Source: Aldersonia sp.
GTDB taxonomy: Bacteria; Actinomycetota; Actinomycetes; Mycobacteriales; Mycobacteriaceae
DNA: 24,000 nucleotides
Direction of reading: 5' to 3'
NCBI GenBank assembly: GCA_036524855.1
Contig: DATDBL010000191.1
Location: 1 to 24,000, forward strand
Shown here: piece by piece, positions 5,143 to 22,589 of the stretch
Numbering within the stretch: the first letter of the stretch is position 1
How the letters are laid out: every line of letters begins with the position of its first letter
Position numbers and translations under genes: made by a program
The notes under the pieces: generated by a model
What the model saw: the letters and a program-made list of their open reading frames with translations, nothing else
The model's database searches: none
Told to the model about the DNA's origin: nothing

Positions 5143-5473
5143 CTAGCACGACGCGCACGCACCAGTCTGCAACGCCACCCCCTGGCACGGCTCACTTGTC
5201 GCTCTCCGGGTCGGACCGACGCGGCTTCGGATGACATGCCGCCCGGCGGGGTATGTTTCTCAGTTCCGTTGGGGCACAGCATCTCGCGGAATCATCGCGT
5301 ATCGCAGAATCGAGACGGAGCACATGCCGCATGGTCGACGCGAGTCTTTGACACTCCCGAAGCTGCTGGAGACAACCGAATCACACCTACGCTCGACGGT
5401 TTCGCGCTTTCGGGTTCACGTGGGTGGCGCCGCGGGCGGGCATGCGGCGCGAGTTGCGTTGGTGGCGTTCGGC

Positions 5474-5785: not shown

Positions 5786-6024
5786 CCCCGCTCCGTCCCC
5801 GTGCCGGTCGAACAGACCAGTGTGGTGCACGTACACCGCGATCGCAGGACGAACATACCGGTTGCGGGTAAAGGACAGACACCTTGCGGCGCCGGCAGCA
5901 CGGGCGGGGGCGGCGCCGCGGTGGTGCCGTGGCCGGGGCGTGCCGCACCCAGTTCCGGCGATTCCGCCGCCATGTCGGTGTGTGCGATGCCCGTGGGGCA
6001 CGATGTCACGGCGACGAACTGCAT
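5782..6024 (-). pseudogene. PTS EIIB (fructose-family)-like N-terminal fragment, apparently degraded after about 25-35 codons
   Basis: The ORF starts MQFVAVTSCPTGIAHTDMAAES, matching the phospho-Cys loop (VAVTxCPTGIAHTxMAAE) of fructose-type EIIB domains as I recall it. Downstream the sequence becomes Pro/Cys-rich with no EIIB likeness. By my hand count, A/T-ending codons rise from 6 of the first 46 to 12 of the last 34. No EIIC or EIIA gene lies nearby. Confidence 0.4.
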
Positions 6025-6128
6025 GTCACGCGCCTTTCAACGGTTCGCTGTTGAACCGCATTCGATGCGACGAGCCGTCAGGCTGCTCTGCCTGATCCTG
6101 CGCCGCTGTGTGAGTAAGCCTGCCGACA

Positions 6129-6157
6129 ATTATCGTGTGACACGCGCCTCATGTCAA
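6129..6157 (-). promoter_or_regulatory. Candidate housekeeping-sigma promoter TTGACA-N17-GATAAT, reading toward 6024
   Basis: On the minus strand: TTGACA (6157-6152), a 17-nt spacer, then GATAAT (6134-6129). It sits in a locally A/T-richer stretch about 100 nt upstream of the ATG at 6024. A CGGTTC-N6-GAACCG hairpin (6041-6058) lies in the putative leader. Confidence 0.4.
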
Positions 6158-6344
6158 CATATACGGGCTGAAACAGATGTATTCGGGCATTCAATGACAG
6201 GTGATCCAACGCGCCGGAGCGGTGTGCACCCGTCGAGGTCCCATCGTGGCCGGTCGCGGACCGCAGCGGCACAACGCTGATCGCGACACCGGCGCTGCCG
6301 TCGAACAGCGCCCGATCCAGCCGCGCCAGCGCCGCGGTCATTCG

Positions 6345-6829
6345 TTAGCACAGCCCGGTGACGAACTCGGTCGGATCCAGCGGGCTGTCGCAGCACGGCG
6401 TAGTGGACCTCGCGGGCGGTGTCGAAGAGGACGTCCATGATCGGCCGGTAGGCGGTGTTATCGCAACTGAACTGCAGCGCCCGAGCAGCGGCGGCAGCAT
6501 CCGCCGGTAATAGGTTCGAATACGAGCCGCGCAGCACCGTACGCACCCGGGCCTGGAACTCTCGTTGGTTGGCGTTGGCCTCGCGGACCAACTCGCGCAG
6601 TGTCTTCTCCCCACCCCCGGGTACAGCGCGTCGCGGCACCGTATCGTCCGGGTCTCGATCGCGGCTCGGCCAGCCGAAACAGGATCGCCTCCTTACCGCG
6701 CATGAGCCGCAGGTCGTCGAGCAGCTCCCGCTCCACCCGCCGATCGGCGCGAGCATTGAACTTGTGCAATCGGGTCATAACCTTGATCGTTTCAACCGCA
6801 ACCACACCCGCGATCTCGATCTCTGTGAA
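6345..6829 (-). pseudogene. Tn3-family transposase (TnpA) internal fragment, multiply frameshifted relic
   Basis: Motifs I recognise from the central part of Tn3-family TnpA appear in order but across three frames. FTEIEIAGVVAVETIKVMTRLHKFNARADRRVERELLDDLRLMRGKEAILFRLAE is at 6829-6662. DPDDTV.RRAV.GGGEKTLRELVREANANQREFQARVRTVLRGSYSN is at about 6660-6514. YYRRMLPPLLG is at 6512-6480. ALQFSCDNTAYRPIMDVL is at 6480-6406. Both the N-terminal roughly 300 aa and the catalytic C-terminal half are absent. Weak further similarity may extend down to about 6200. Confidence 0.6.
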
Positions 6830-7077
6830 CTATGTTCGTAATGCCCTCGCGTCTGCCAGGTTCGCAGGTCGAGCTTCGCGGCGCGGGGCAGGTGGGTGTC
6901 GCGCCCGGAGGTGGCCGGGCTGATGCTCGCGGCCGGCCACGTCATCGGGGTGACATGGGCGAAGAGCGCAGCAGACCCGAGCGACCGGTGCCTGTCCGCT
7001 TGGTCATTTTCCAGTAGCGTCGTAGTCGTGACCAGTGGCGTGAGACCTGGGTGGAGGCCCGGCGGGAGATCAGTTCG

Positions 7078-7899
7078 GTGTGCCTGACGTTGTTCGCGTG
7101 GAAGGCGCATCCCGAGTTCGCGCTGGTGGTCGCGAACAATCGCGACGAGGTGTACACGCGCGCGGCGGAGCCGCTGCACTGGTGGTCCGATTCGGCTGTA
7201 CTTGCGGGGGTGGATGTTCCGTCTGGCGGGACCTGGATGGGTGTCGCCGCGGACGGCCGGTTCGCGGTGGTGTCCAATGTTCGGGAGGGTCGCCCGTCCG
7301 CCGGCGCGGCGGCGGAGGTGTCGAGGGGGTGGTTGCCGACGGGATTCCTGCAAACAGGTCTGTCGCCCGAGGAGTATGCGACACGAACGCAGGCGGCTGG
7401 CGGTGACTATCGGGGCTTCAGCCTTCTCTGCGGGGACCTCCGAGAAATGTGGTGGGTGAGCAACCGGTCGCGCAGATCGCCGCGACGTGTCGACCCCGGA
7501 GTGCACGGTGCGTCGAACGCGCCGGCAATCGACCCCGGGTGGCCCAAGGTCGTGGGTGGGCGAGTAGCGTTCGCCGCTGCGGTCGAGGGCGACGACGGGT
7601 CGCCCGAGGCGGGGGCGGCGTATTTCGATCTGCTGCACGACACCACGTTTGCTCCTCGGAAGAGGCTGCCCCACACCGGTGTCGGTCTGGTGACCGAGAA
7701 GCTTCTGTCGGCCCGGTTCGTTCGGATGGGTGTCTACGGGACGCGGGCGTCGACGGTGTTGCGGATGCGCTACGACAGGTCGTTCGACATGGTCGAGCGT
7801 AGGTTCGGCCGCTGGCGTCGGATCGGGGAAACACGATTCACGACCACGTCGGCGAGGGCGTCGGGACCTGATTCGAGCCCGGATCCGCCATGGGTCTGA
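7078..7899 (+). CDS. NRDE-family protein (DUF833 / TANGO2-like)
   Basis: It contains the family-naming NRDE motif (FALVVANNRDE) near the N-terminus. I place the start at GTG 7078 so the protein begins (M)CLTLFAW, the Met-Cys start typical of this family. GGGAGA lies 8 nt upstream. Confidence 0.8.
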   Translation: MCLTLFAWKAHPEFALVVANNRDEVYTRAAEPLHWWSDSAVLAGVDVPSGGTWMGVAADGRFAVVSNVREGRPSAGAAAEVSRGWLPTGFLQTGLSPEEYATRTQAAGGDYRGFSLLCGDLREMWWVSNRSRRSPRRVDPGVHGASNAPAIDPGWPKVVGGRVAFAAAVEGDDGSPEAGAAYFDLLHDTTFAPRKRLPHTGVGLVTEKLLSARFVRMGVYGTRASTVLRMRYDRSFDMVERRFGRWRRIGETRFTTTSARASGPDSSPDPPWV

Positions 7900-7900
7900 C

Positions 7901-7936
7901 GTGCTGGCCTGGCGACTACCCCAGCCAGTCCAGCAC
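7901..7936. terminator. 13-bp-stem hairpin at the convergent NRDE / hydrolase junction (possible bidirectional terminator)
   Basis: GTGCTGGCCTGGC (7901-7913) pairs with GCCAGTCCAGCAC (7924-7936) at 12 of 13 positions, with a 10-nt loop. The first arm starts 2 nt after the NRDE stop. The second arm lies in the last codons of the minus-strand gene. There is no U-tract. Confidence 0.4.
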
Positions 7937-9265
7937 CGACGCCGCCGTCCACGACTGCTGCATGCTGCCGAGTGGTTCGCCGGTGAAGGGCTCGTAGTAC
8001 TCGGCGAAGCTGCCGTCGCTGGCCTGGCGCAGGCCCTCGGCGCGTAGCATCAGCGAGCGTTCGGACCACCCGCGGCGCGCGAACGCCCACGAGAACAGCC
8101 AACTCATCACCGGCCACACCGGCCCACGCCAGTACTCCTTCGGCCGGAATGCCGCAGACACCGGCGACGTCGACGGCGGCAGCGCGTATTTCAAGTCGGG
8201 ATGACCACAGAACCGTGGACCCTCGAAGATCCGCAGCAGCGCGCGTTCGGTGTTGCGGGGCAGCCCACCCGACAGCAGTGGCGCGAACATCGCCAACGTC
8301 TCCGTCGGGATCCACCGCCCGGTGCGCACGTCGAAGTCACGCGCCGCGCCCGAGCGTGCATCCGTCGTCGCGACGACTCCCTTGCGGAACCGTTCGGCCC
8401 ACGAATGCAGATCCCGCACATCGGCATTGGGTTTGCGGTAGTCCTCGCCGATGATGGCGAGCACCTCGCACGCGAGGGCGAACACGGCACTGACGAACAC
8501 GTCCTCGACGACGAAGCTCATCGTCGCGGCGAGTTCGGTGTCGTCGTAGCGCGCGCGGCGCATTTCCTCGACCAGCCACAGGTAACGGTCGTACTCGAGG
8601 TCCGACGGTCGCTGGGCGGCGTCGGTGACGATGTGCTTGTCCTCGCGCTGATACGCGGGCAGGTCGGTGCCGGGAACGACGTTGGCGTACGCGCGATCCC
8701 ACCGCGGCGAGTTGTCCATCCCGGACTCCCAGCCGTGGTAGAGGGTGATCCGGCCGTCCTGTTTGGGGTCGCGCGCGTGAGCGAGCCAGCGGTGCCAGCG
8801 GACGAAGTCGGGCCAGCGCCGGTCGAGGAAGCCCTCGGCCACCGCGCGGGTGGTGCGACCGTGCCGCCGGGAGTGGTCGAGGATCCGCTGCAGCGCGATC
8901 GCGTGCACGGGCGGCTGGGTGATGCCGGATGTGTCGGGCCCGGGCGGCGCGTGCAATGCGAGCTCGCGGCATTCCCAGCGTGCGGGGCCGGGGAAGTAGC
9001 CGTCGACGCCGTTGGCGAAGACGATGTGCGGGATCATCCCGTTGCGCCACTGCGCCGACAGCAGTGTGTCGAGTTCGACGACGGCACGCTCGACGCTCAG
9101 CGGCGCGAGCCCCACCGACACGAACGCCGCGTCCCAGCTCCACATGTGCGGGTACAGCCGCGGTGCCGCGCTGGTCATGGTGCCCAGGTCGTTGCCGCGC
9201 AGCAGGTACGCAGCCCGCGCCGCGAGCTGCGTCGGAGTGAAGCCCGGATCGTTCATCGGTTCCAT
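7916..9265 (-). CDS. ggh: Glucosylglycerate hydrolase (GH63-like MGH/GgH family)
   Basis: Near-collinear with the Mycolicibacterium hassiacum GgH sequence as I remember it. Shared stretches include FTPTQLAARAAYLLRGNDLGTMT..PHMWSWDAAFV, LLSAQWRNGMIPHIVF, ITLYHGWESGMDNSPRWD and the end SDGSFAEYYEPFTGEPLGSMQQSWTAA.VLDWLG. An alternative start is the ATG at 9256. Confidence 0.8.
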   Translation of the reverse strand: MEPMNDPGFTPTQLAARAAYLLRGNDLGTMTSAAPRLYPHMWSWDAAFVSVGLAPLSVERAVVELDTLLSAQWRNGMIPHIVFANGVDGYFPGPARWECRELALHAPPGPDTSGITQPPVHAIALQRILDHSRRHGRTTRAVAEGFLDRRWPDFVRWHRWLAHARDPKQDGRITLYHGWESGMDNSPRWDRAYANVVPGTDLPAYQREDKHIVTDAAQRPSDLEYDRYLWLVEEMRRARYDDTELAATMSFVVEDVFVSAVFALACEVLAIIGEDYRKPNADVRDLHSWAERFRKGVVATTDARSGAARDFDVRTGRWIPTETLAMFAPLLSGGLPRNTERALLRIFEGPRFCGHPDLKYALPPSTSPVSAAFRPKEYWRGPVWPVMSWLFSWAFARRGWSERSLMLRAEGLRQASDGSFAEYYEPFTGEPLGSMQQSWTAASVLDWLG

Positions 9266-10003: not shown

Positions 10004-12874
10004 CTACGCCACGATGTTGACCAGTTTGCCGGCCACGACAATGACCTTGCGCGGGGCCTTGCCCGCCAGATGTGCGACGATCTTCTCGTCGGCCAGGGCC
10101 GCCGCCTCGACCTCGGCGGCATCCGCATCGGCCGGCACGGTGATGCGGCTGCGGACCTTGCCGTTCACCTGGATCGGGTACTCGACCGTCTCCGCGACCA
10201 GAAACTGCGGGTCGGCTACCGGGAACGGTCCGTGCGCAAGAGATTCCAGGTGACCGAGGCGCTCCCACAACTCTTCGGCGACGTGCGGGGCCAGCGGCGC
10301 GAGCATCAGCACCAGCGGTTCCACCACCGCACGCGGAGCACCGTTCGGGTACTCCTTGGTCAGGTGGTTGTTCAGCTCGATCAGCTTCGCACCGGCCGTG
10401 TTGTCCCGCAGCGCAGCATAATCCGCGGTGACGCCGTCGATGGTCTTGTGCAGCAGGCGCACCGTCTCGAGTCGTGGATCATCCTCGGTGATTCGCGGCT
10501 TGCCGGTTTCCTCGTCGAGCACGACGCGCCACAGCCGCTGCAGGAACCGGTGTGCGCCGACGACGTCCTTGGTAGCCCACGGCCGCGACGCGTCCAACGG
10601 ACCCATCGACATCTCGTAGAAACGCAGCGTGTCCGCGCCGTAATCGGCGCAGATCTGGTCCGGCGCAACGGCGTTCTTCAGGCTCTTGCCCATCTTGCCG
10701 TACTCCTGGATCACCTCGGCGTCGCCGTGCACGAACGTGCCGTCCCGCTCGACGACCTCCTCGGCCGGCACATACACCCCCCGCGCGTCGGTGTAGGCGA
10801 AGGCCTGGATGTAGCCCTGGTTGTACAACCGACGGTACGGCTCACTGGAGGTGACGTAGCCGAGGTCGTAGAGCACCTTGTGCCAGAACCGCGAATACAG
10901 CAGGTGCAGCACGGCGTGCTCGACGCCGCCGACGTACAGGTCTACGCCGCCGGGGTCGTTCGGACCGTGCAGGTCCGGCCGCGGACCCACCCAGTACGCC
11001 TCGTTCTCCTTGGCGCAGAAGGCTTCCGAGTTCGTCGGGTCGACGTAGCGCAGCTGGTACCAGGAACTGCCGGCCCACTGCGGCATCACGTTGGTGTCGC
11101 GGTGATAGCGGCGTAGGCCGTCGCCGAGGTCGAGGTCGACCTCCACCCAGTGCGTCGCCTTCGCCAGCGGCGGGGACGGCTCGGAGTCCGCGTCGTCCGG
11201 GTCGAACGACACCGGCGCGAACTCGTCGACCTCCGGGAGCTCCACCGGCAGCGCGGTTTCCGGCAGCGGATAGGGCTGGCCGGCGTCGTCGTAGACGATC
11301 GGGAACGGCTCGCCCCAGTACCGCTGCCGGGCGTACAGCCAGTCCCGCAACTTGTACGCGATGGTGCCCTCGCCGTGCCCGTCGGCCTCGAGCCGGGCGA
11401 TCACCGTCGCCTTCGCGGTGTCGACGTCGAGCCCGTCGAGATAGTCGGAGTTGACCAGCGAGCCGTCTCCGGCGTAGGCGCCCTGTGTCACGTCGCCGCC
11501 GGAGATCACCTCGATGATGTCGAGGCCGAACGCGCTAGCGAACTCCCAGTCGCGCTGGTCGTGGCCGGGCACCGCCATGATCGCGCCGGTGCCGTAGCCG
11601 AGCAGCACGTAGTCGGCGATGAACACCGGCAGCCGATGCCCGTTGACCGGATTGACCGCGTGCGTGCCGAGGAAGACTCCGGTCTTCTCCTTGCTTTCCT
11701 GCCGATCGAGGTCGGACTCCCCGACGATCGCCTGACGGTAGGCCGCCACGGCCTCGCCCGGGGTTGCGAAACCGCCGTAGGTCCAGCGCGGATCCACCCC
11801 GTCGGGCCACCGCGCGGCGGTGAGCCTCTCCACCAGCTCGTGCTCGGGCGCGAGCACCATGTACGTCGCCCCGAACAGCGTGTCCGGGCGGGTGGTGAAC
11901 ACCTCGATCGTGGCGTCGCCGGCGTCGAAGCGGACCTGCGCACCGCGCGAGCGCCCGATCCAGTTGCGCTGTATGGTCTTGACCTTGTCCGGCCAGTCCA
12001 GGTACTCGAGGTCGTCGATCAGGCGGTCGGCATAGGCGGTGATCCGCATCATCCACTGCCGCAGGTGCTTGCGGAACACCGGGAAGTTGCCGCGGTCGCT
12101 GCGCCCGTCGGAAGTGACCTCCTCGTTGGCCAGCACCGTGCCCAACCCGGGACACCAGTTGACCAGCGAGTCGCCGTGGTACACGAGCCGGTAGGTGTCG
12201 ATCAGCTCGCGTCGCTGCGCCACCGACAGCTCAGCCCACGAACCGCCGTCGGGCAGCGCGCGAAGGCCGGCGGCGAACTCCGCCTCCAGTTCCGTGATCG
12301 GGCGGGCCCGGTCCAGATCCGCGTCGTACCAGGCGTTGTAGATCTGCAGGAAGATCCACTGCGTCCAGTGGTAGTAGTCGGTGTCGGTCGTGGCGAACGC
12401 GCGGCGCTCGTCGTGGCCCAGCCCGAGCCGGTCCAGTTGCGCCTTCATCGTCGCGATGTTCGCCTCGGTGGTGACCCGCGGATGGGTTCCCGTCTGCACC
12501 GCGTACTGCTCGGCGGGCAGCCCGAACGCGTCGTAACCGAGGGTGTGCAACACGTTGTGCCCGTTCATCCGGTGGAAGCGGGCGAACACGTCGGTCGCGA
12601 TATAGCCGAGCGGGTGGCCGACGTGCAGGCCGGCCCCGGACGGGTAGGGGAACATGTCCTGCACGAACAGCTTGTCGGTGGGGACGTCGTTCGGGTCGGC
12701 GGGCGCCAGGTCACCCACCGGATTCGGGGCCTCGAACGTGCCCCGCTCGCGCCAGCGCTGCTGCCAGCGCGCCTCGATAAGCCCGGCCAGTTCCGCGTCG
12801 TAGCGATGTGCAGGCGTCGACTCAGGCGTCACGGGGGCGGGTGCGTCCGGGTTGTCCACGGCTGGATCTCTCAT
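10004..12874 (-). CDS. leuS: Leucine--tRNA ligase
   Basis: 956-aa class I synthetase with HVGH ([16 protein letters not shown]) and KMSKS-type (KMGKSLKN) signatures. The CP1 editing region and overall LeuS collinearity are present. Confidence 0.97.
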
Positions 12875-12962: not shown

Positions 12963-13361
12963 GTGCTGGTCGTCGCTGTGTTCCTGTTCGTCCTCGCCGT
13001 TGCCGCGCTCGCGACCGGGGTCGCCGGGCTCACCGGCCGGTTGCCGCGCAATCGCTGGGTGGGTGTGCGCACCGAGCAGACCGTCGACGACGACCGCGCG
13101 TTCGCGCTCGCCAACCGCATCGCCGCACCGACCACCATCGCCGCCGGGGTGCTGCTCGCAATCGGCGGCACGGTCGCGCTGCTGTTCGACGGGCTGTTCG
13201 GAATGCTCGCGATCGTCGCGACAATCATCGCCGCCGTCGCCACAGCGGGTGCCGGTGCGTCGCTGGGCGCCCGCGCCGCCGCCACGGCGACCGTCGGTAC
13301 CGGATCGTGCGGCCACGCATGTGGGTCGTGCACTCTGGCCGGCGGCTGCGAACGCGCCTGA
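12963..13361 (+). CDS. SdpI/YhfL-like small membrane protein with a Cys-rich C-terminal tail
   Basis: GTG start. Three hydrophobic spans are present. GRLPRNRWVGVRTEQT resembles the SdpI-family loop motif. The C-terminus is GSCGHACGSCTLAGGCERA. TATCCT (12950-12955) ends 7 nt before the GTG, so a leaderless transcript is possible. Confidence 0.6.
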   Translation: MLVVAVFLFVLAVAALATGVAGLTGRLPRNRWVGVRTEQTVDDDRAFALANRIAAPTTIAAGVLLAIGGTVALLFDGLFGMLAIVATIIAAVATAGAGASLGARAAATATVGTGSCGHACGSCTLAGGCERA

Positions 13362-13370
13362 TCCATCCCG

Positions 13371-13405
13371 CCTGATTGTCACTGCGTCCTGATTGTTCAC
13401 TGCCT
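13371..13405. repeat. Imperfect tandem direct repeat CCTGATTGTCACTGCGT / CCTGATTGTTCACTGCCT
   Basis: Read directly from the sequence. A third CCTGAT (13357-13362) overlaps the stop codon of the SdpI-like gene. Confidence 0.85.
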
Positions 13406-13531
13406 CGCGTCGTGTGGCGCCGTCCGCGCCGGTCACGCCCGGGCGCGACGTCGCGCAGGTTCTATACGTGTCGCGCGGGTTCAGCCTGCGCGGCGCGTGC
13501 AAAAGCTGCGCGACGTGCACTCACAGGCGCG

Positions 13532-13573
13532 TCAGCGCCTTCAACTCAGCGCCTTCAACTCAGCGCCTTCAAC
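13532..13573. repeat. Perfect 3 x 14-bp tandem repeat TCAGCGCCTTCAAC, covering the stop codon of the aminotransferase gene
   Basis: The copies are at 13532-13545, 13546-13559 and 13560-13573. On the minus strand this reads GTTGAAGGCGCTGA x3. The gene's TGA (13557-13555) lies in the GTTGA at the start of the second copy, right after the junction with the first. Confidence 0.95.
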
Positions 13574-14592
13574 ACCGCCGCGCTGGCTTCCGAGTCGCCG
13601 ACCGCGATGCGGGCGGACCCGTCGGGATAGGCCTTCACCGAGATGCCGGCCACCCGCAGGCGGGAGGCGATGTCGGGTCCGTCGAGGTAAAGAAAATTCG
13701 CGTGACTGCGCGGCACGTGCACACCCGCACGCAGCAGCGCCGCCCGCAACCGCTCCCGCTCGGCCGTGATCCGCGCCACCCGGTCGCGCACCTCCGACTC
13801 CGCCGCATACGACGCGGACACCGCCGCCACCGCGACCGCGCCCATCCCGAACGGCACCTGCCACCGGCGCACCCGGTTGGCGAGTTCGAAGCCCGCGAAC
13901 GCGTAGCCGATCCGCAGCCCCGCCAGGCCGTAAGCCTTGGAGAACGTCCGCAGCACGAGCAGGTTGGCGTGGCGGCGCACGAGCCCGACGGTGTCGAGGA
14001 CGTCCGCGCCGGCGAGGAACTCGACGTACGCCTCGTCGAGCACCACCGTCACCCGCCGCGGCACGGCTGCGAGGAACGCCGCGACCTCGTTGGCGGAGAC
14101 GAGCGTGCCGGTCGGGTTGTGCGGCCGGCACAGCACCACCACCCGGGTGCGGGAATCGATCGCCCGGACCATCGACCAGAGGTCCTGGCGGCCCTCGGGA
14201 TCCAGGTCGACGGCGATCGCCCGCACGTCCAGCATCTTCGCCATGATCGGGTAGCCGTCGAAGGTCGGGCGGGCGAACAGGATCGACTCACCCGGTCGCA
14301 GCAGGGCATGCATCAGTTGCATCGCCACGCCCGTGGCGCCCGACCCGACCACGACCTGGTCCGGATGCACCCCGACGTGGTTGGCGATCACCCGCGGCAA
14401 CCGCTGCGGCAGGAACTCCGGATAGCGATTCGCTCGACCCATCACGCGCTCGAGTTCGCGCCGCACCGACGGTAACGGTGGATAAGGGTTCTCGCTCAAC
14501 GTCAGGTCGAACCGCTCGGTGACGCCGACACCGTCCGCCGTCTCGAAGTACGGCCGGGTCTCGTCGAAGGCGACCGTGCCGCGCCCGCTCAT
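13555..14592 (-). CDS. Class I/II-fold PLP aminotransferase, HisC/Pat-like (histidinol-phosphate / aromatic aminotransferase family)
   Basis: LSENPYPP, PHNPTG and the Lys motif RTFSKAYGLAGLRIGY are typical of HisC-type enzymes. I choose the ATG at 14592 (MSGRG...) because it overlaps the upstream gene's TGA (ATGA at 14589-14592). The longer ORF-track N-terminus is Arg-rich junk. Confidence 0.85.
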   Translation of the reverse strand: MSGRGTVAFDETRPYFETADGVGVTERFDLTLSENPYPPLPSVRRELERVMGRANRYPEFLPQRLPRVIANHVGVHPDQVVVGSGATGVAMQLMHALLRPGESILFARPTFDGYPIMAKMLDVRAIAVDLDPEGRQDLWSMVRAIDSRTRVVVLCRPHNPTGTLVSANEVAAFLAAVPRRVTVVLDEAYVEFLAGADVLDTVGLVRRHANLLVLRTFSKAYGLAGLRIGYAFAGFELANRVRRWQVPFGMGAVAVAAVSASYAAESEVRDRVARITAERERLRAALLRAGVHVPRSHANFLYLDGPDIASRLRVAGISVKAYPDGSARIAVGDSEASAAVLKALS

Positions 14593-15629
14593 GCCGGCTT
14601 CGCTCCCCATCGCACCGCGGCCGCCCCCGCGTAGTCGCCGGCATGCGCGAACGCCGACATCAGCACCAGCGACCCGTTCGCGATCCGGCCCGCCCGGTTC
14701 TCGGTGTCGAGCGTGACGGGAATGCCCGCGCCGAACAGGTTTCCGCACTCGTCGAAGGTGTCCGGGTGCTTGCCGCCCGGAATCTGCAACGCGTCGTGCC
14801 AGTTTCGCAGAAACAGCCGGTTTGGCTGGTTGCTCACGAAAACGTCGACGTCGCCCGGCTTGGCGTCGATCTCCTCGAGCACCGCGTAACCGACCTCGGG
14901 CACCAACCGGTTTCCGCGGGTGAACACCTTCGCGATCTTCGACTCGGTGAAACCGATGGTGGGCTGACCGATTCCGGGCTCCCAGTACTTGCGCGGGACC
15001 GCGTCCTTCGGCAGCCCGACGGCCTCGAAGGTCATGTCACCGGCAAACTCCGGGTACGTTCGGCCGACGACGCCGAGGATCGGCGCGTCCTCGTTCTTCA
15101 CCAGCAGGCCGACGCCGCACCCGTCGCCCGGAACCGGGGCGAACGCAAGCTTGCGGATCTCGCTCTGTGTCATCGAGGGACCGGCCGCGTTCTGTACCGC
15201 CGCGATCATGGCGGTCTTGGCGTCGGTGGTCTGCAGGATCTTCTGCGCCAGCGCCATCATGTGCGGGAACGAGGCGCAGCCGCCGTTGTGCACGTCGATC
15301 ACCCAGTCCGGTCGCAGGCCGAGCCGCCGCGCGACCTCGGGCCCCGAGCCGAGCACCGGGTTGTCCGGCAGCTGCACGTGGGTGAGCAGCACGTCCACGT
15401 TGCCGATCGTGTCGCGGCCGTGCCGCTCGATCAGCGGCGCGACGGCGCGTTCGACCATGTCGACCGCGGTCTCGTCCCGTGCGACGTGGTGGCGGTAGCT
15501 GGGCGAGCGGAACATGACGTTCTTCGCCATCCGCTCCGACCGCGAGAACTGCGTGAAATATTCGGTCGGAACCCGATTCTCGGGCAGGTAGCTGGCGACG
15601 TCGACCAGGCTGACGGTGGGGAACTCCAT
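14589..15629 (-). CDS. KAS III (FabH)-like thiolase-fold enzyme with Asn in place of the catalytic His
   Basis: The protein is collinear with E. coli FabH from memory. The Cys elbow DVHNGGCASF aligns with DVAAACAGF, and PGDGCGVGLL with FGDGAGAAVL. VFVSNQPN aligns with WLVPHQAN, and ECGNLFGAGIP with RHGNTSAASVP. The N-to-N spacing is exactly the 30 residues of FabH His244 to Asn274. Confidence 0.85.
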   Translation of the reverse strand: MEFPTVSLVDVASYLPENRVPTEYFTQFSRSERMAKNVMFRSPSYRHHVARDETAVDMVERAVAPLIERHGRDTIGNVDVLLTHVQLPDNPVLGSGPEVARRLGLRPDWVIDVHNGGCASFPHMMALAQKILQTTDAKTAMIAAVQNAAGPSMTQSEIRKLAFAPVPGDGCGVGLLVKNEDAPILGVVGRTYPEFAGDMTFEAVGLPKDAVPRKYWEPGIGQPTIGFTESKIAKVFTRGNRLVPEVGYAVLEEIDAKPGDVDVFVSNQPNRLFLRNWHDALQIPGGKHPDTFDECGNLFGAGIPVTLDTENRAGRIANGSLVLMSAFAHAGDYAGAAAVRWGAKPA

Positions 15630-15630
15630 G

Positions 15631-16287
15631 CTATTTCATCCAATCCGGCTTGATGGGCAGGCCGTGGCTCGCGCGGTACTCGCAGATGGCCTTGAGGGTG
15701 TCCATTTCCATTTGGTGACCGGCGTAGAAGAGATCCCAACCGTCACCGACCCACACCGGACGCTTGGGCGGCGCCGTCTCCGGATACGGGTTCTCGTCGT
15801 AGAAGGGGTGCTTGCAGTTGACCCAGGTGACCACGCTGCCCGGCTTGTTGAGCACCACCTGCGCGTCGACGACCCGCATCAGGTAGACCATCCACAGGTG
15901 GAACCCCTGGTCCCAGGCGCAGTGGTAGTCGACGGTCATCGCATCGGGGTTCGCGATCGTGCGGGTGTAGCACCTGGTCTGCCCACCGACCCGGTCGAAC
16001 GACTCCCACAGGCCGGGCTCGTCGGTCTCGACGAACCCGCGCAGGCTGTAGGTCCACTCCTCCAGCGACCGGGTGTCGGCGAGGTACTCGTACACCTCGC
16101 GCGGCGGCGCGTCGATGTAGGCGTTGATCGGGCAGAACTGCCCGTAGATCTGGTCGTGCGGGTACACCGCGCGGGTCATCTCGAACACGATCTCCTTGGC
16201 AACGTCCTTGTCGGAGGTCTCGATCCGGGTGACTCCGGGGATGTCTTCGCCGATGTCGGACAGGGCGGGCAGGGCACTGGTGGTCAT
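15631..16287 (-). CDS. Hypothetical protein, tentatively SRPBCC (START / Bet v1 / polyketide-cyclase-like) superfamily
   Basis: 218 aa. The ATG at 16287 is preceded by AAGGAG and overlaps the upstream TGA (ATGA at 16284-16287). CPINAYIDAPPREVYEYLADTRSLEEWT resembles the N-terminal strand-helix signature of SRPBCC proteins. The family call is tentative; the CDS itself is well supported. Confidence 0.6.
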   Translation of the reverse strand: MTTSALPALSDIGEDIPGVTRIETSDKDVAKEIVFEMTRAVYPHDQIYGQFCPINAYIDAPPREVYEYLADTRSLEEWTYSLRGFVETDEPGLWESFDRVGGQTRCYTRTIANPDAMTVDYHCAWDQGFHLWMVYLMRVVDAQVVLNKPGSVVTWVNCKHPFYDENPYPETAPPKRPVWVGDGWDLFYAGHQMEMDTLKAICEYRASHGLPIKPDWMK

Positions 16288-17981
16288 GCGGATGCTCCTT
16301 CGGTGTGGGCGGGCAGGGCAGCGAGAAAGGGCACGAACGGCGGGATCTCGTCGGGATCGCAGTCCAACGCGAGGAACGCGGGCCCCTCGGCGTCGGCGAG
16401 GTCGCGCAAGCCGACGTCGAGTTCGGCGAGTGTTGCGGCGGTGCGCACCTTCAGGCCGGGGAACATGGCGGCGACGCCCTCGCCGATGCGCGTGGGCGCA
16501 AACCGGTTGAAGCTGTATCCCCCTCCGTAGTAGAGCTGTTCGCGGGTCACGCACATGGCGTGGGCGTTGTTGTTGAACACCATGAACGTGATCGGCAGTC
16601 GGTGCTCGACGGCGGTGTGGATCTCCATGCCGTGCATGAAGAACGCGCCGTCGCCGGCGATCACCACCGTGCGCTCCTCCGGTCGGGCGAACGCCGCGCC
16701 GACCCCGGCGCCGAAGCTGTAGCCCATCCCTCCCATGCCGAGCGCGACGACGAAGCGTCCGTCGCGCGGGATCGGCAGGTGGTGCACCACCGCGGCGCCG
16801 GTGTTGCCGGCATCGGCGAACACCGCGGTGCCGGGCCGCAGCGTCGCGCCGATCGCCTCGACGGCGTCGCGGTAGCGCAGACCCGGCCCGTCCGCCGGCG
16901 GCACCGCCAGCGGCCCGACCGGCTCTCCGCCTCGCGGCCGCGTCTCCTCGTCGAGCGCCTCGGCGAGATCACGCAGGTCGCGGCGCAGATCGGTGCTGGT
17001 CGCGTGGGCCGCGTCGACGTGCGGTGCGTCCGCGCCGATGCTCAGCAGCGTCGTGGCAGCGAACGCCGGGTCGAGGCCGCCGCGACCGGTCACCGGCATC
17101 CTGGTGCCGACGAACAGGCAGGCCGCCGACCCGCGGATCGCGTCGCCGAGTTCGGTGTGCCCCATGATCCCCGCGACTCCGCAGTAGCCGGGTTCGAGAG
17201 GACCATAGACGTCCTTGGCGTCGGGCAGCACGCCCACAGACGCGTCGAGTGTCGTCGCGAGGTCGCGCAGCTCGGCGCGGGCATCGTTGCGGGCGACCTG
17301 GTCCCCGGCGACGATCACGATCTTGCCGGTGCGGCGCCGGGCGGCCAGACTCGCCCGCAGCCGCAGCAGCCGCGACGTGTCGTGCGCATGCCGGATCGGC
17401 GGCGGCACGAAGGGCGGCAGATCGACCTCGGCCTGCTGGACGTCCTTGGGCAGCAACAGCACCGCCGGTCCGCCGGAGAGGGCGGCGGTGACCGCGCGGC
17501 GCAAGCGGTCGGCGATGTCGGCGGGGTCGTCGACACGGGCGCAGTAGCGCGTGATCGCGCCGAACAGCGCGGTCGCATCGATGGTCCCGGCGCGTCCGCT
17601 GGTGTCCTGGAAGGCGCCGTGCCCCTCGAGCGGCCTCGGCGGCTGCCCGACCAGCGCCAGCACCGGTACCCGGGACTCGAAAGATTCCGACAGCCCCGCA
17701 ACGAGATTCATCGCGCCGCCACCGGAGGTCGCAGCGACGACGCCGAGGCCGGACCGGACACGGGCGTACCCGTCGGCCATCGTCGCGGCGCCGAACTCGT
17801 GCTTGGCGACAACGGCGGTGATGCCGGGAGAGCCGGCTCGCCTCGATAAAGCGGCGGCGTCGTAGAGATCCTCGATGTTGGCGCCGTCGACCCCGAACAC
17901 GGTGTCGACGCCCAGTGCCGTGATCGCGTCGACGAGGTAGTCCACAACTCGGCCCGGGCGCGCGGAAGTCTGCTTGGTCAT
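16284..17981 (-). CDS. Thiamine-diphosphate-dependent enzyme, acetolactate-synthase / carboligase-like
   Basis: 565 aa. The catalytic-Glu region is VAKHEFGAATMADGYARV. The ThDP motif is GDG-X24-NN (IAGDGAFFMHGMEIHTAVEHRLPITFMVFNNN). The ATG at 17981 is preceded by GAGGAG. The ORF-track start at 18287 would add an Arg/His-rich extension overlapping the anti-sigma gene. Confidence 0.85.
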   Translation of the reverse strand: MTKQTSARPGRVVDYLVDAITALGVDTVFGVDGANIEDLYDAAALSRRAGSPGITAVVAKHEFGAATMADGYARVRSGLGVVAATSGGGAMNLVAGLSESFESRVPVLALVGQPPRPLEGHGAFQDTSGRAGTIDATALFGAITRYCARVDDPADIADRLRRAVTAALSGGPAVLLLPKDVQQAEVDLPPFVPPPIRHAHDTSRLLRLRASLAARRRTGKIVIVAGDQVARNDARAELRDLATTLDASVGVLPDAKDVYGPLEPGYCGVAGIMGHTELGDAIRGSAACLFVGTRMPVTGRGGLDPAFAATTLLSIGADAPHVDAAHATSTDLRRDLRDLAEALDEETRPRGGEPVGPLAVPPADGPGLRYRDAVEAIGATLRPGTAVFADAGNTGAAVVHHLPIPRDGRFVVALGMGGMGYSFGAGVGAAFARPEERTVVIAGDGAFFMHGMEIHTAVEHRLPITFMVFNNNAHAMCVTREQLYYGGGYSFNRFAPTRIGEGVAAMFPGLKVRTAATLAELDVGLRDLADAEGPAFLALDCDPDEIPPFVPFLAALPAHTEGASA

Positions 17982-18037
17982 ACACGCTCCTCTGCCCGCG
18001 CGGGTGGCGCGGGCTGGTGGATGGTTCTGGCTGTGAA

Positions 18038-18062
18038 TACGAGACAGCCGTCCCGGCGGTTC
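18038..18062 (-). promoter_or_regulatory. Candidate ECF (SigL-type) promoter upstream of the four-gene cassette
   Basis: The minus strand reads tcGAACC-GCCGGGACGGCTGTCT-CGTAttCAC, that is GAACC-N16-CGT. It lies in the 89-nt gap between the anti-sigma stop (18071) and the ThDP-enzyme ATG (17981). It shares GTCTCGTnnnCAC with the promoter candidate upstream of the sigma gene. Confidence 0.6.
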
Positions 18063-18070
18063 GATCGGGG

Positions 18071-18811
18071 TCAGAGCACGCTGGTCAGCAGGACCCGATC
18101 GGTGGCGGTGGAGCGGATGCCGACCTGCCGGACGTCGGAGGGCGGCACGTCGATCATGGCGGACTCGGTGACGGTGTCTCCGGGGGAGGCCTTCCAGGTC
18201 GCGACGTGCGACTGCCCACCGTCGGAGGTGCCCACCCACAGCGAGTACTCGCCGGTGTAGGACCGGCCGGTCTCGTCGTAGCGGCACACCATGTCGATGC
18301 GGGTGCCGCCGGAGGGATCGGCGAACAGTTCGAACTCCGCCGACAGCGGGGATGGCACGAGCTTGTCCATCGAACGGGACGCGACGAGTTCGGCCTGCGT
18401 CGTGGGGGTGCTGCCACCACTACCACCACCGCCACCACTGCCACCACCGTCGGCGGACCCGGCGAGGGTCACCGGGACGGCGATCGCCACCGCGGCGGCG
18501 GCCGCTGCCACGGCGGCACCGACCGAAACCCACAGGCCACGGCGGCGACGTCGCTGTGCTGCGGCCGCGAGCCGGGGCAGCAGATCTTCGGGTTCCGGGT
18601 CGGATTCCGGTTCGTCTTCGAGCATCGCCAGCGCGGTGTCGCGGGGGACGAGCGCAAGCATCCCAGGGACGCCGGCGAGTTCGGCCACCGCCTCGCGGCA
18701 GCGCGCGCAGTCCTCGAGGTGGTGTTCGAACCGGCGCCGGTCGGTGGGGGACAGCGCGCCGAGCACGTAGGCGGCGTCCCAGGTGGCGAACTCGTCGCCG
18801 GGCTCGGTCAT
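18071..18811 (-). CDS. rslA: Membrane-spanning zinc-binding (ZAS) anti-sigma factor, RslA-like
   Basis: The HxxxCxxC motif is present (HHLEDCARCREAV), preceded by WDAAYVLGALSPTDRRRFE. One TM span is present (LWVSVGAAVAAAAAAVAIAVPV), followed by a Gly/Ser linker and an extracytoplasmic domain ending RVLLTSVL. This matches the architecture and motifs of M. tuberculosis RslA as I recall it. The ATG overlaps the sigma gene's TGA (ATGA at 18808-18811). Confidence 0.8.
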   Translation of the reverse strand: MTEPGDEFATWDAAYVLGALSPTDRRRFEHHLEDCARCREAVAELAGVPGMLALVPRDTALAMLEDEPESDPEPEDLLPRLAAAAQRRRRRGLWVSVGAAVAAAAAAVAIAVPVTLAGSADGGGSGGGGGSGGSTPTTQAELVASRSMDKLVPSPLSAEFELFADPSGGTRIDMVCRYDETGRSYTGEYSLWVGTSDGGQSHVATWKASPGDTVTESAMIDVPPSDVRQVGIRSTATDRVLLTSVL

Positions 18812-19311
18812 TTCGTCACCCCCAGCTCCTGCATCGCGAGCCGAAGCGCACGCATCCCGTAGTGCATGCGTGACTTCACGGTACCCTCGGGAATGTCCAG
18901 GTCAGCGGCGATCTGCTGGGTGGAGTACCCGCCGTAGTAGGAGCGGACGATGACGTCGCGGTGGTCCTGCGACAGTCGCGACAGCGCCTCGGCAACAACC
19001 CACGAGTCGACCGCCCGGTCGGTCGCGTCGGCGCTCGGCCGCTCCGGGGGCGCGTCGGTGCGCACCTCCCGGCGGCTGCGCGCGCTGCGGTGTTCGTCGA
19101 ACGCGAGGTTGCGCGCGACCGTGAACAGCCACCCCCGCGCCGACGCGGTCGACTGGTCGAGCACCTTCGGGTGCTGCCAGGCCCGCAACAGGGTCTCCTG
19201 CACGATGTCCTCCGCCCGCTGTCGATCCCCCACCAGCCCGACGGTGTAGCGCCAGAGCACCGCTGCGTGCTGTTCGTACAGCACCCGCATCAGCTCGGCC
19301 TGATCGGGCAT
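18808..19311 (-). CDS. sigL: ECF sigma factor, SigL-like
   Basis: LMRVLYEQHAAVLWRYTVGLVGDRQRAEDIVQETLLRAWQHP, WLFTVARN and EGTVKSRMHYGMRALRLAMQELGVTK closely track M. tuberculosis SigL from memory. I place the start at ATG 19311, which is preceded by GGAGGTGAGC. The ORF-track start at 19428 would put the promoter candidate inside the coding sequence. Confidence 0.85.
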   Translation of the reverse strand: MPDQAELMRVLYEQHAAVLWRYTVGLVGDRQRAEDIVQETLLRAWQHPKVLDQSTASARGWLFTVARNLAFDEHRSARSRREVRTDAPPERPSADATDRAVDSWVVAEALSRLSQDHRDVIVRSYYGGYSTQQIAADLDIPEGTVKSRMHYGMRALRLAMQELGVTK

Positions 19312-19330
19312 GCTCACCTCCGGCGTGTCC

Positions 19331-19355
19331 ACGAGACGCGCGACCGACTGGTTCA
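19331..19355 (-). promoter_or_regulatory. Candidate autoregulatory ECF (SigL-type) promoter
   Basis: The minus strand reads TGAACC-AGTCGGTCGCGCGTCT-CGTggaCAC, that is TGAACC-N16-CGT. It ends about 20 nt upstream of the sigL-like ATG. It matches the TGAACC / CGT-type consensus I recall for mycobacterial SigL. Confidence 0.65.
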
Positions 19356-19451
19356 CCGCGTCGGCGCGGCCCTCACCCGAGCCGGATGAGATCCGCGTCC
19401 GTCGGTGGAATAGCGGCTCGCCGCGCATACGTTTACACCTACGCTCGCAGG

Positions 19452-20822
19452 GTGAAGAAGATCCCGCACCCCGACGGCGTTCTCACCCCGGCCTACACCG
19501 GCCGCCTCGCAACCGACCCGATCCCCGCGCTGCGCCTGCCCGACTCGCCCCGCGAGCCGGAGGAGGCCTACCAGTACATCCACGACGAGCTGATGCTCGA
19601 CGGAAGCTCACGGCTCAACCTCGCCACGTTCGTCACCACCTGGATGGACGAGCACGCGGGCAAGCTTATGGCAGAGACGTTCGACAAGAACATGATCGAC
19701 AAGGACGAGTATCCGGCGACCGCGGCGATCGAGACCCGCTGCGTGAACATGGTCGCGGACCTGTTCCATGCTCCGGGGCTGGACCCCACCGACCCGACAT
19801 CGGCGACGGGCGTGTCGACCATCGGGTCGAGCGAGGCCGTCATGCTCGGCGGGCTGGCGCTGAAGTGGCGCTGGCGGGCCGGGGGCAAGGGGACCGGCAC
19901 GCCGAATCTGGTGCTGGGCAGCAACGTTCAGGTCGTGTGGGAGAAGTTCTGCCGTTATTTCGAGGTGGAGCCGCGCTACCTGCCGATGGCGCACGACCGC
20001 TACGTCATCACCCCCGAGCAGGTGCGTGAGGCCGTGGACGAAAACACGATCGGCGTCGTCGTCATCGTCGGGACGACCTTCACCGGCGAACTCGAGCCGG
20101 TCGCGGAGATCGCGAAGACCCTCGACGAACTCGCCGCGGGCGGCGGACCCGATGTCCCGATCCACGTCGACGGGGCCAGCGGCGGATTCGTCGTGCCGTT
20201 CCTGTACCCCGACCTGGAGTGGGACTTCCGGGTGCCGCGGGTGGCGTCGATCAACGTCAGCGGCCACAAGTACGGGCTGACGTACCCGGGCATCGGGTTC
20301 GTCGTGTGGCGCGACAAGGAGTGCCTACCCGAGGACCTCGTGTTCCGGGTTAATTACCTCGGCGGCGACATGCCGACCTTCACGCTCAACTTCTCCCGCC
20401 CGGGCAACCAGGTGGTGGGGCAGTACTACAACTTCCTGCGCCTCGGCCGCGAGGGCTACACCGACATCATGACGGCGCTGCGCGACACGGCCGTGCGGAT
20501 CTCCTCGGCAATCGCGACGATCCCGGAGTTGAAGGTCGTCGCCGACGGCACCGCGATCCCGGTAATCGCCTTCACCCTGGCCGACGAACGGCCCTACACG
20601 GTCTTCGACGTCTCGCATGAACTGCGTGCCCGCGGCTGGCAGGTCCCCGCCTACACCATGCCCGACGACGCCACCGACGTTGCGGTGCTGCGGATCGTCG
20701 TCCGCGAGGGCTTCAGCGCGGACCTCGGCCACCTGCTCGTCCACTCGATCCGCGAGGTGATCACCGAACTCGACCAGATCAAGCCGCAGAAGCACTCGGA
20801 CACAACGCATTTCGCGCACTGA
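19452..20822 (+). CDS. gadB: Glutamate decarboxylase (PLP-dependent)
   Basis: Near-collinear with M. tuberculosis GadB from memory. Shared stretches include APAYTGR, IHDELMLDGSSRLNLATFVTTWMD, FDKNMIDKDEYPATAAIE, SINVSGHKYGLTYPGIGFVVWR and FSRPGNQVVGQYYNFLRLGR. I chose GTG 19452 by N-terminal alignment. The ATG at 19386 is the ORF-track alternative. Confidence 0.93.
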   Translation: MKKIPHPDGVLTPAYTGRLATDPIPALRLPDSPREPEEAYQYIHDELMLDGSSRLNLATFVTTWMDEHAGKLMAETFDKNMIDKDEYPATAAIETRCVNMVADLFHAPGLDPTDPTSATGVSTIGSSEAVMLGGLALKWRWRAGGKGTGTPNLVLGSNVQVVWEKFCRYFEVEPRYLPMAHDRYVITPEQVREAVDENTIGVVVIVGTTFTGELEPVAEIAKTLDELAAGGGPDVPIHVDGASGGFVVPFLYPDLEWDFRVPRVASINVSGHKYGLTYPGIGFVVWRDKECLPEDLVFRVNYLGGDMPTFTLNFSRPGNQVVGQYYNFLRLGREGYTDIMTALRDTAVRISSAIATIPELKVVADGTAIPVIAFTLADERPYTVFDVSHELRARGWQVPAYTMPDDATDVAVLRIVVREGFSADLGHLLVHSIREVITELDQIKPQKHSDTTHFAH

Positions 20823-21905: not shown

Positions 21906-22589
21906 TCAGTTGCGGTCGAGATCGATCGGGTGGGTCGCGAGCAACGCCAACGGCATGGGCTGACGGCGCAACACCGCCGCCCACAGATCCCGCCGCGCCG
22001 GGCCCAGCAGATCCGACGCCAGAGCGGACGTGACCATCCAGTCGTTGCGAGCGAGTTCCCCGTCGAGTTGACCGAACGTCCACCCGGAGTATCCGGCGAA
22101 CACACGGATCCCCTCCACGAACGGCTGGAGATCAGCCGGATCCGAATCGAGGTCGACCATCGCGATCCGGCCGTCGACGCGGCGCAGTCCGGCCACCGTC
22201 TCGACGTCGACACCGACGCTGACGATGGCCAGACACAGTGCGGCGTCGCGCTTGACCGGGCCACCGACGAACAGCGCCTTGGGTTTGGCGGCGAGATCGG
22301 CCCATCGCGGCAGCACGTTCACCACCGCAGCGTCGCTTGGTCGGTTCAGCACCACCCCGAGGGTGCCGGAGTCGTTGTGTTCGATGATGTAGACGACCGT
22401 GCGGCGAAACGCCGGTTCGGTGAGGTCCACGGCCGACACGAGCAGGCTGCCGGGCCGAACCGCGCCCTCATGAGCGGCGGCGCCCGTATCGTCGGGGCCC
22501 CACCCGCTGTGTTGTTCGTGTTCGCTGTGTTCTTCGTGTCCTCGGTGCGTGGTCCGATCCTCGGGTTCCTCCGCGTGTGCCACGCTCAC
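21906..22589 (-). CDS. YqgE/AlgH family (UPF0301) protein, Rv0038-like
   Basis: FRRTVVYIIEHNDSGTLGVVLNRPS, GGPVKRDAALCLA, FAGYSGWTFGQLDGE and the C-terminal LLATHPIDLDRN track the M. tuberculosis Rv0038 sequence as I recall it. GTG start. The N-terminus is His/Glu-rich. Confidence 0.85.
   Translation of the reverse strand: MSVAHAEEPEDRTTHRGHEEHSEHEQHSGWGPDDTGAAAHEGAVRPGSLLVSAVDLTEPAFRRTVVYIIEHNDSGTLGVVLNRPSDAAVVNVLPRWADLAAKPKALFVGGPVKRDAALCLAIVSVGVDVETVAGLRRVDGRIAMVDLDSDPADLQPFVEGIRVFAGYSGWTFGQLDGELARNDWMVTSALASDLLGPARRDLWAAVLRRQPMPLALLATHPIDLDRN

Follow-up and report, generated by a model that had tools for sequence, protein, structure and literature searches.

Among the sigma factors of Mycobacterium tuberculosis (Mtb), SigL is one of the least understood, with a known regulon of four small operons and an inducing signal that is unclear. 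Its promoters follow the consensus TGAACC / CGTGTC (PMC2703886 Table 1; PMC6372665), which we used for comparison, and Lin et al., who transcribed P-sigL in vitro in a SigL-dependent manner, narrowed the -10 element down to C-14 G-13 T-12 G-11 N C/A-9 A-8 G-7, a numbering (-14 to -7) that we follow, and in which His54 of SigL reads position -12 and Asp60 reads position -11 (PMC6372665). The cognate anti-sigma factor RslA holds zinc through His25, His50, Cys54 and Cys57 (PMC2877774) and is inactivated by oxidation with zinc release (PMC2877774) or by Rip1-dependent proteolysis (PMC10449499). A separate line of work has described how the bacterial carbazole core is built: an aminotransferase makes indolepyruvate, a thiamine diphosphate (ThDP)-dependent enzyme joins pyruvate to it, a KASIII-like enzyme acylates the product, and CqsB2 closes the ring (PMC7466098). 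Herein we analysed a 24,000-nt stretch of Aldersonia sp. (contig DATDBL010000191.1, positions 1 to 24,000; genome G+C 69%), referred to as the window, which in our assessment very probably carries a SigL-RslA module with two SigL-type promoters, one in front of its own operon and the other in front of a four-gene carbazole-type cassette.

The sigma factor of the window comprises regions 2 and 4 only (Pfam) and scores 249.8 bits against the NCBIfam model NF007227 (PRK09645; cut-off 202), while the SigK, SigM and SigE models score it below their own cut-offs. Its best solved relative is Mtb SigL (6dv9_F, E 1.2e-58, 60% identity), with the next distinct extracytoplasmic function (ECF) sigma structure at E 1.9e-15, and on these matches the protein is a SigL orthologue. 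The ATG of the adjoining anti-sigma gene overlaps the sigL stop codon as ATGA (18811-18808), and the N-terminal domain of its product matches RslA (3hug_B, E 2.5e-18) with the HxxxCxxC motif kept, H31, C35 and C38 aligning with RslA His50, Cys54 and Cys57. As read from the sequence, a hydrophobic segment, LWVSVGAAVAAAAAAVAIAVPVTLAG, follows at residues ~92-118, and then a Gly/Ser linker. An earlier note, written from the letters of the window, had proposed a sigL-rslA pair here, and both identifications held. Just outside the anti-sigma membrane segment, the Gly/Ser-rich linker GGGSGGGGGSGGS is encoded by a 9-nt repeat of ~4 copies (18411-18449).

Upstream of sigL, the minus strand reads TGAACC (19355-19350), a 16-nt spacer AGTCGGTCGCGCGTCT and CGTGGACAC (19333-19325), giving a TGAACC-N16-CGTGGA element 40 nt 5' of the sigma gene, at the very place where the earlier note had located its first motif; GGAGG (19321-19317) lies downstream of CGTGGACAC, 5 nt before the sigma ATG (19311). 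This site fits the SigL consensus well (TGAACC, 16-nt spacer, CGTG), and its -10 element, CGTGGA, retains CGTG plus the A at -9. The second site occupies the 89-nt gap between the rslA stop codon (18073-18071) and the ATG of the ThDP gene (17981), where the same strand reads CGAACC (18063-18058), a 16-nt spacer GCCGGGACGGCTGTCT and CGTATTCAC (18041-18033), i.e., CGAACC-N16-CGTATT; here too, the proposed motif position and gap length proved correct. Its -35 element is a 5/6 match to TGAACC, and its -10 element retains only CGT of the Mtb form, with A replacing G-11. The agreement with the SigL TGAACC/CGT consensus that had been claimed for both sites therefore stands for the sigL site (TGAACC/CGTG), while at the cassette site it extends to GAACC, the 16-nt spacer and CGT but not to the first base, C, or to the A at -11. 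Using a promoter matrix trained on orthologous sites, with the window's own sites left out, the two promoters obtained the two top scores in the 24-kb window (22.2 for the cassette promoter and 14.5 for the sigL promoter, the third being 9.4). No sigma-70-type promoter was detected across 13300-19600.

The likeness between the two sites goes beyond the minimal consensus. Both contain GAACC, an exact 16-nt spacer and a shared block, as had been pointed out before, and the extended pattern GAACC-N12-GTCTCGT-N3-CAC has exactly two matches in the window, even with up to two mismatches allowed, where 0.05 are expected; none of 100 shuffles gave two or more copies. The minimal pattern GAACC-N16-CGT is not significant alone (three found vs 1.4 expected, with 13 of 100 shuffles reaching three), and the earlier note erred in reporting no third copy in the window, since one is present at 3542-3565 on the minus strand. 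We rejected this copy as a SigL site: it lies antisense inside a phospholipase C gene, scores <8 with the matrix and is best read as chance. TGTACC-N16-CGTGTC at ~5606-5640 (minus strand), which combines a perfect Mtb-type -10 with a single -35 mismatch and has the third-best matrix score in the window (9.4), was likewise set aside as a third SigL site, being ~460 nt from the nearest downstream small open reading frame (ORF; 4888-5142, minus strand).

To place the two promoters in a comparative setting, the ThDP protein was used as query against one genome per species, which retrieved 80 loci from Nocardia, Rhodococcus, Aldersonia, Antrihabitans, Mycobacterium, Mycolicibacterium and metagenome-assembled genomes, with Aldersonia contributing the genomes closest to the window (69-88% protein identity). 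The order of ThDP, CqsB2-like and KASIII-like genes is found in 79 loci, most of which also have the aminotransferase gene; locus L080 differs in gene order, and the L071 sequence ends before the KASIII gene. Counting sigL-rslA as linked when it lies within 8 kb of the cassette, linkage was observed in 63 of the 80 loci, with the pair next to the cassette in 14, apart from it on the same strand in 45 and convergent downstream in 4. In 74/80 loci, including 63/63 of those carrying sigL-rslA, a TGAAC-N16/17-CGT motif falls in the 120 nt before the ThDP gene, and in one of the six motif-less loci the contig breaks off 104 nt before that gene. In front of sigL, TGAAC[CT]-N16/17-CGT was found within 260 nt in 55 of the 63 loci, and the other eight have close variants.

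The orthologous cassette sites have a spacer of 16 nt in 71 cases and of 17 nt in 4, and positions outside the search pattern are strongly conserved as well, namely a T before GAAC and a C after it, and a T before CGT followed by A/G-T-C. The spacer itself carries far less information than the motif (mostly <=0.5 bit per position in the matrix), and in an alignment of the gap across nine genera, with a mean column identity of 36%, GAAC and CGT are the sole invariant columns. A pattern-free count of 6-mers upstream of the ThDP genes is also topped by TGAACC (64 of 79 regions, 39.5-fold enriched). The stricter form TGAAC[CT]-N16-CGT[AG] has 125 matches in 2.63 Mb against ~6 expected, of which 70 lie before the ThDP gene and 20 before sigL. 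With 90 of the 125 strict matches thus at the two predicted positions across the 80 loci, and with the extended block present twice in the window against 0.05 expected, we give hardly any credence to the idea that the two sites, in a genome of 69% G+C, owe their likeness to chance or form a regulator's operator in place of a promoter, even if the minimal pattern does not reach significance there (3 vs 1.4 expected) and the GTC and CAC of the window's shared block are not conserved in other loci, where only T-CGT is. The two halves of the element differ, and they stand a fixed 16 nt apart with free sequence in between; such an asymmetric, bipartite form is what a sigma-type promoter typically shows, and not a dimeric operator.

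The cassette motif persists where sigL is 2.6-6 kb away or convergent, and this therefore points to a cassette promoter that is independent of the one before sigL. It also makes it quite unlikely that sigL, rslA and the cassette form a single operon read from the sigL promoter alone, with the gap motif a non-functional relic: such an arrangement would suit the close, same-strand genes of the window, the 89-nt gap devoid of a terminator-like site and the non-consensus first base of the window's -35, but the motif is kept before the ThDP gene with divergent genes between it and the distant sigL, and is kept also with sigL convergent downstream or absent from the locus, and conservation beside a drifting spacer would be unexpected for a relic.

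Divergent ABC transporter genes lie between sigL-rslA and the cassette in Nocardia, and the Nocardia loci (39 of the 80) share a conserved ACTATACGTAGATGTATACGTACACGCAAG that precedes the cassette -35 by 33-75 nt; its complementary strand carries TTGCGT-N17-TATAGT with an ATG close behind, which looks like a housekeeping-type leaderless promoter of a small divergent gene (MPNKT...). A Nocardia subgroup (L038, L043, L047, L048, L050, L051, L055, L057-L061, L063) has a conserved upstream ORF of six or seven codons before sigL, for example ATG AAT TAC GAC GAG CAG TGA (MNYDEQ), which has its own AGGAG and sits between TGAACT-N16-CGTTAC and sigL. In the M. nebraskense group (L064, L066, L067, L069; ~7860-7945), two SigL-type promoters stand back to back as GGTTCACCC-gccgg-GGTGAACC, one facing the cassette and the other a divergent, apparently leaderless operon of an ABC ATPase and an FtsX permease.

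Loci with a different regulator serve as a natural control. The four-gene cassette is kept in Gordonia (L082), Tsukamurella (L083) and Williamsia (L084), where the upstream neighbours are no longer sigL-rslA but a response regulator of the OmpR type and a histidine kinase gene that is divergent, and one Streptomyces has a LysR gene in this upstream position. Neither pattern nor matrix returned a SigL-type site within 7 kb on either side of the Gordonia, Tsukamurella, Williamsia and Streptomyces cassettes, and the two-component system of Gordonia was found in 0 of the 80 sigma-type loci; therefore the cis-element changes with the linked regulator. Taken together with the presence of the motif, between drifting spacer and flanks, in 74/80 loci and in every locus that carries sigL-rslA, this pattern gives computational support to the proposal of the earlier note that the cassette is the local regulon of this sigma factor. 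At ~60 nt before the ThDP gene, the Gordonia, Tsukamurella and Williamsia loci share a direct repeat, CTCAGCG...CTTTCAGCG, which is a likely response-regulator site.

One mycobacterial locus (L086), whose contig carries a protein named by NCBI from M. attenuatum, which we take to be a species of the M. kansasii complex, has the gene order secY-adk-M24 peptidase-sigL-rslA-four cassette genes-MarR. Its sigma factor shares 89% identity with Mtb SigL. The site before its sigL gene reads TGAACC-N16-CGTGTCAG, with a -10 identical to that of the Mtb P-sigL used for in vitro SigL transcription (PMC6372665), and its cassette promoter is TGAACT-N16-CGTGTTAC, located in a rslA-ThDP gap of 51 nt; these two promoters have the top two matrix scores in 20.7 kb. 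In Mtb, the MarR gene rv0737 directly adjoins sigL-rslA (PMC13002591), and thus the cassette is absent from the Mtb sigL site. In Mycolicibacter terrae (L087), no sigL-rslA follows the M24 peptidase gene, yet TGAACC-N16-CGTTTA precedes the cassette, and a second site at ~19123 (minus strand, score 21.2) precedes an FAD-monooxygenase/DUF4389/methyltransferase operon that is divergent from a MarR gene. The sigL-cassette unit lies between an AlgH-like gene (window 21906-22589) and leuS (10004-12874) in Nocardiaceae (L005, L006) and follows secY-adk-M24 peptidase in Mycobacterium, and given these two flanking gene sets, it occupies two chromosomal contexts.

Several points count against reading the window as a SigL-RslA module that serves both its own operon and the cassette. 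The cassette -35 starts with C where ~98% of the orthologous sites have T, and the cassette -10 has A at -11, where Mtb SigL prefers G most strongly (PMC6372665); deviating at two well-conserved positions, this promoter may be weak, or may be read with altered specificity. The sigma factor keeps His54 but has Gln at the position of Asp60, with an Asp one residue earlier (LDQ for IGD). Asp6 of the anti-sigma factor aligns with His25, the fourth zinc ligand of RslA, and because of this replacement redox sensing by the RslA-like protein of the window is, judging from the alignment, not assured. Since no terminator was predicted in the 89-nt rslA-ThDP gap, read-through from the sigL promoter may also contribute to the cassette. 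The loci are moreover phylogenetically related, which means that locus counts overstate the number of independent events. Finally, many ECF groups use GAAC...CGT-like promoters, and cross-recognition by another ECF sigma factor is conceivable.

Such a factor, with an AAC/CGT-type specificity of its own, would read the cassette promoter while the linkage to sigL was merely genomic. We regard this as improbable, given that the motif is in all 63 sigL loci and is gone where a two-component system or LysR replaces sigL-rslA, that the same motif stands before sigL, its type in locus L086 being identical to the experimentally used Mtb P-sigL, and that the -10 form shifts between clades together with the sigma residue that reads -11. 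On the other side are the departure of the cassette -10, CGTATT, from CGTGTC at -11, the most specific position, and the occurrence of the motif in 11 loci with no sigL in the fetched range, and likewise in Mycolicibacter terrae with no local sigL, but several of the sigma-less loci are truncated contigs. The cassette -10 is CGTA[T/G] in Nocardiaceae loci and CGTGTC in Mycobacterium loci, while the position of Asp60 is Gln (LDQ/LEQ) in all Nocardiaceae loci and Asp, with one Gly, in the mycobacterial loci. CGTGT is accordingly paired with Asp/Gly60 in 12/12 loci and CGTA with Gln in 49/51, although the sigL promoters do not follow this pairing. The pattern of residue 60 and the cassette -11 base fits co-evolution of sigma factor and promoter, a lead only, as it stems from a single phylogenetic split.

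The four genes behind the second promoter (Table 1) overlap (ATGA) or leave a one-base gap, with the CqsB2-like ATG overlapping the ThDP stop codon and the aminotransferase ATG overlapping the KASIII stop codon. The next gene, of the SdpI family (12963-13361, plus strand), is convergent with the aminotransferase gene, and the operon therefore comprises four genes, none of which encodes a carrier protein. The CqsB2-like protein has no Pfam family, and its match to the CqsB2 structure 6ipv_A covers residues 26-210; in the alignment, Tyr144 and Tyr172 are kept and Glu105 is replaced by Asp (residues named in PMC7466098). The ThDP enzyme falls under all acetolactate-synthase equivalog cut-offs and has BbmA and CsmA as its best solved relatives (E ~1e-53), the KASIII-like enzyme is far under the FabH cut-offs (PDB FabH family E 3e-14 or weaker), and the aminotransferase reaches 318 bits against NF002878 (cut-off 374). 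The genes of these three enzymes are adjacent and translationally coupled within the cassette, and their products were matched at the level of Pfam or PDB families, not to the CqsB3, CqsB1 and CqsB7 sequences. Judged by these matches, the cassette probably encodes the carbazole-core enzyme set. The earlier note had linked it to the thiolase-fold polyketide genes pks10/pks7, which is an analogy only, the cassette being a carbazole-synthase-type pathway and not a polyketide synthase. Relatives of the CqsB2-like protein occur widely among Mycobacteriales, and their annotation goes no further than 'SRPBCC family protein' or hypothetical. At the far end of the operon, a perfect 14-nt tandem repeat, TCAGCGCCTTCAAC (3.0 copies, 100% match, 13532-13573), spans the aminotransferase stop codon, and each extra copy repeats the last aminotransferase codons (LKALS-stop).

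Table 1 Coordinates of the sigL-rslA module, the two predicted promoters and the carbazole-type cassette in the window.
Feature	Coordinates	Strand	Remarks
-35 element TGAACC, sigL promoter	19350..19355	-	matches Mtb SigL -35 consensus TGAACC (PMC2703886)
-10 element CGTGGACA, sigL promoter	19326..19333	-	numbering after PMC6372665; predicted start ~19319-19322
sigL, ECF sigma factor, 167 aa	18808..19311	-	Pfam Sigma70_r2 + Sigma70_r4
rslA-like membrane anti-sigma factor, 246 aa	18071..18811	-	Pfam zf-HC2
-35 element CGAACC, cassette promoter	18058..18063	-	top matrix score in window, 22.2
-10 element CGTATTCA, cassette promoter	18034..18041	-	predicted start ~18027-18030
G+C hairpin, predicted cassette 5' leader	17994..18014	-	8-bp stem, 5-nt loop
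Shine-Dalgarno GAGGAG, ThDP gene	17987..17992	-	5 nt before ATG at 17981
ThDP-dependent carboligase-like enzyme, 565 aa, position of CqsB3/NzsH	16284..17981	-	Pfam TPP_enzyme N, M, C
CqsB2/NzsI-type carbazole synthase homologue, 218 aa	15631..16287	-	6ipv_A (CqsB2) E 6.7e-46
KASIII-like enzyme, 346 aa, position of CqsB1/NzsJ	14589..15629	-	Pfam ACP_syn_III_C
Class I/II (HisC-like) aminotransferase, 345 aa, position of CqsB7/NzsD	13555..14592	-	Pfam Aminotran_1_2

Between the predicted start site of the cassette transcript and the ThDP gene lies a G+C hairpin, GCCCGCGC-CACCC-GCGCGGGC, which ends 1 nt before GAGGAG (17992-17987). It exists where the earlier note had placed it, but with a stem of 8 bp around the 5-nt loop and not the proposed arrangement of 7+N5+7. 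The fold predicted for the cassette leader has a minimum free energy of -22.4 kcal/mol (z = -3.3) and pairs part of the Shine-Dalgarno sequence with upstream bases; the hairpin has no T-run and was not predicted to be a terminator. We rejected it as a conserved feature of the leader, because 59 folded leaders gave a mean z of -0.8 with no common position or sequence, and mycobacterial cassette leaders are only ~8-10 nt long. A search of the whole window against Rfam at gathering thresholds gave no match. Elsewhere in the window, the ~1.9 kb at 5142-7051 hold no ORF with a coding third-position G+C signature, and the long ORFs there are without Pfam match and the region without Rfam match; its G+C falls to 0.61-0.65 in parts.

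A working model for the SigL-RslA module and its two promoters can be outlined, in which we infer the start sites, the SigL dependence, the inducing signal and the product alike. At rest, membrane-bound RslA would sequester SigL, until a signal inactivates RslA, which in Mtb involves oxidation with zinc loss or Rip1-dependent proteolysis. Freed SigL would then amplify sigL-rslA from the first promoter by positive autoregulation, and from the second promoter it would start the translationally coupled four-gene cassette. The encoded enzymes would probably convert an aromatic amino acid, most likely tryptophan, to an acyl-substituted carbazole-type metabolite, via an arylpyruvate, acyloin coupling, and acylation with ring closure. 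Bacterial carbazoles are radical scavengers, and antioxidant lipocarbazoles come from Tsukamurella pseudospumae (PMC7466098 ref. 7; PMC11387468). A redox-sensing anti-sigma factor together with an antioxidant carbazole product would make for an attractive oxidative-stress logic.

Joining these strands, SigL-RslA might ancestrally have served as a switch dedicated to an antioxidant pathway of carbazole type, probably similar to that of the lipocarbazoles, across Mycobacteriales, a possibility that we raise tentatively and on balance doubt somewhat. In such a scenario, oxidative or envelope stress would inactivate RslA, and SigL would induce the cassette, joined in some species by tailoring genes and a divergently oriented ABC exporter. 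The module would move as a unit; a two-component system would have taken its place in Gordonia, Tsukamurella and Williamsia. In the M. kansasii complex it has rslA on one side and the Rv0737-type MarR gene on the other, whereas the Mtb lineage would have lost it, a loss that would leave Mtb SigL with only secondary targets. The change of Asp60 to Gln would have co-evolved with the change of G to A in the cassette promoter. The analysis ties the sigL gene, in most of its relatives, to a conserved small-molecule cassette by way of a conserved promoter, and those bacteria that stand closest to the tubercle bacillus have the cassette at the matching place in the chromosome; this gives a concrete hypothesis for what SigL-RslA originally controls. 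Deletion of rslA or overexpression of sigL offers a genetic handle to wake a silent, widespread cassette, whose product may be an antioxidant carbazole. Sister genera in which a two-component system stands in for the sigma module offer a clean example from nature of how the regulation of one operon is rewired.

The locus of the window resembles Mtb SigL-RslA (Rv0735-Rv0736; P-sigL, P-pks10, P-mpt53, P-Rv1139c) in its orthologous sigma factor (60% identity), in a ZAS-type anti-sigma factor with HxxxCxxC whose gene overlaps sigL, in the predicted autoregulatory TGAACC-N16-CGTG promoter before sigL and in a small regulon of short operons (PMC4105308; PMC13002591), and the cassette of the M. kansasii-complex locus L086 lies inside the secY-adk-mapA-sigL-rslA...MarR context of Mtb. 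The differences are that the target operon of the window is outside the four Mtb operons, that the cassette -10 is CGTAT and not CGTGTC, with Asp60 changed to Gln and RslA His25 to Asp, and that the context gad ... leuS is unlike the mycobacterial one.

The carquinostatin/neocarazostatin core of Streptomyces (CqsB7/B3/B1/B2 = NzsD/H/J/I) has the same four enzyme types, as judged for the ThDP and KASIII proteins from family-level matches, and three core genes adjacent. Unlike it, the window cassette is without a dedicated acyl carrier protein (ACP), a second (priming) KASIII (NzsE/NzsF; 3-hydroxybutyryl-ACP supply), a prenyltransferase and a P450, and Glu105 of CqsB2 is Asp in the window homologue. 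With the lipocarbazoles of Tsukamurella pseudospumae the connection is a Tsukamurella genome (L083) in which all four cassette genes are also present; carbazoles with a long acyl chain would suit an ACP-less cassette, and their antioxidant activity would fit a redox-sensing anti-sigma factor. In contrast to the window, the Tsukamurella cassette neighbours a two-component system and not SigL-RslA. In the literature that we searched, no published work links the lipocarbazoles to this gene set, and no paper ties SigL or any ECF sigma factor to a carbazole-type cassette.

The general design is shared with other ECF systems, in that sigma and anti-sigma factor are co-transcribed from their own promoter and a second copy of that promoter stands before neighbouring effector genes, but here the effector genes form a cassette for small-molecule biosynthesis, which sister genera have rewired to a two-component system. 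An autoregulated ECF pair with a second promoter on a neighbouring operon is an ordinary kind of system. What is new is the target, a conserved carbazole-synthase-type cassette that is linked to SigL across Mycobacteriales and missing beside Mtb sigL, and the conservation of this wiring in Nocardia, Rhodococcus and Mycobacterium suggests a local job of SigL that has been lost from M. tuberculosis.

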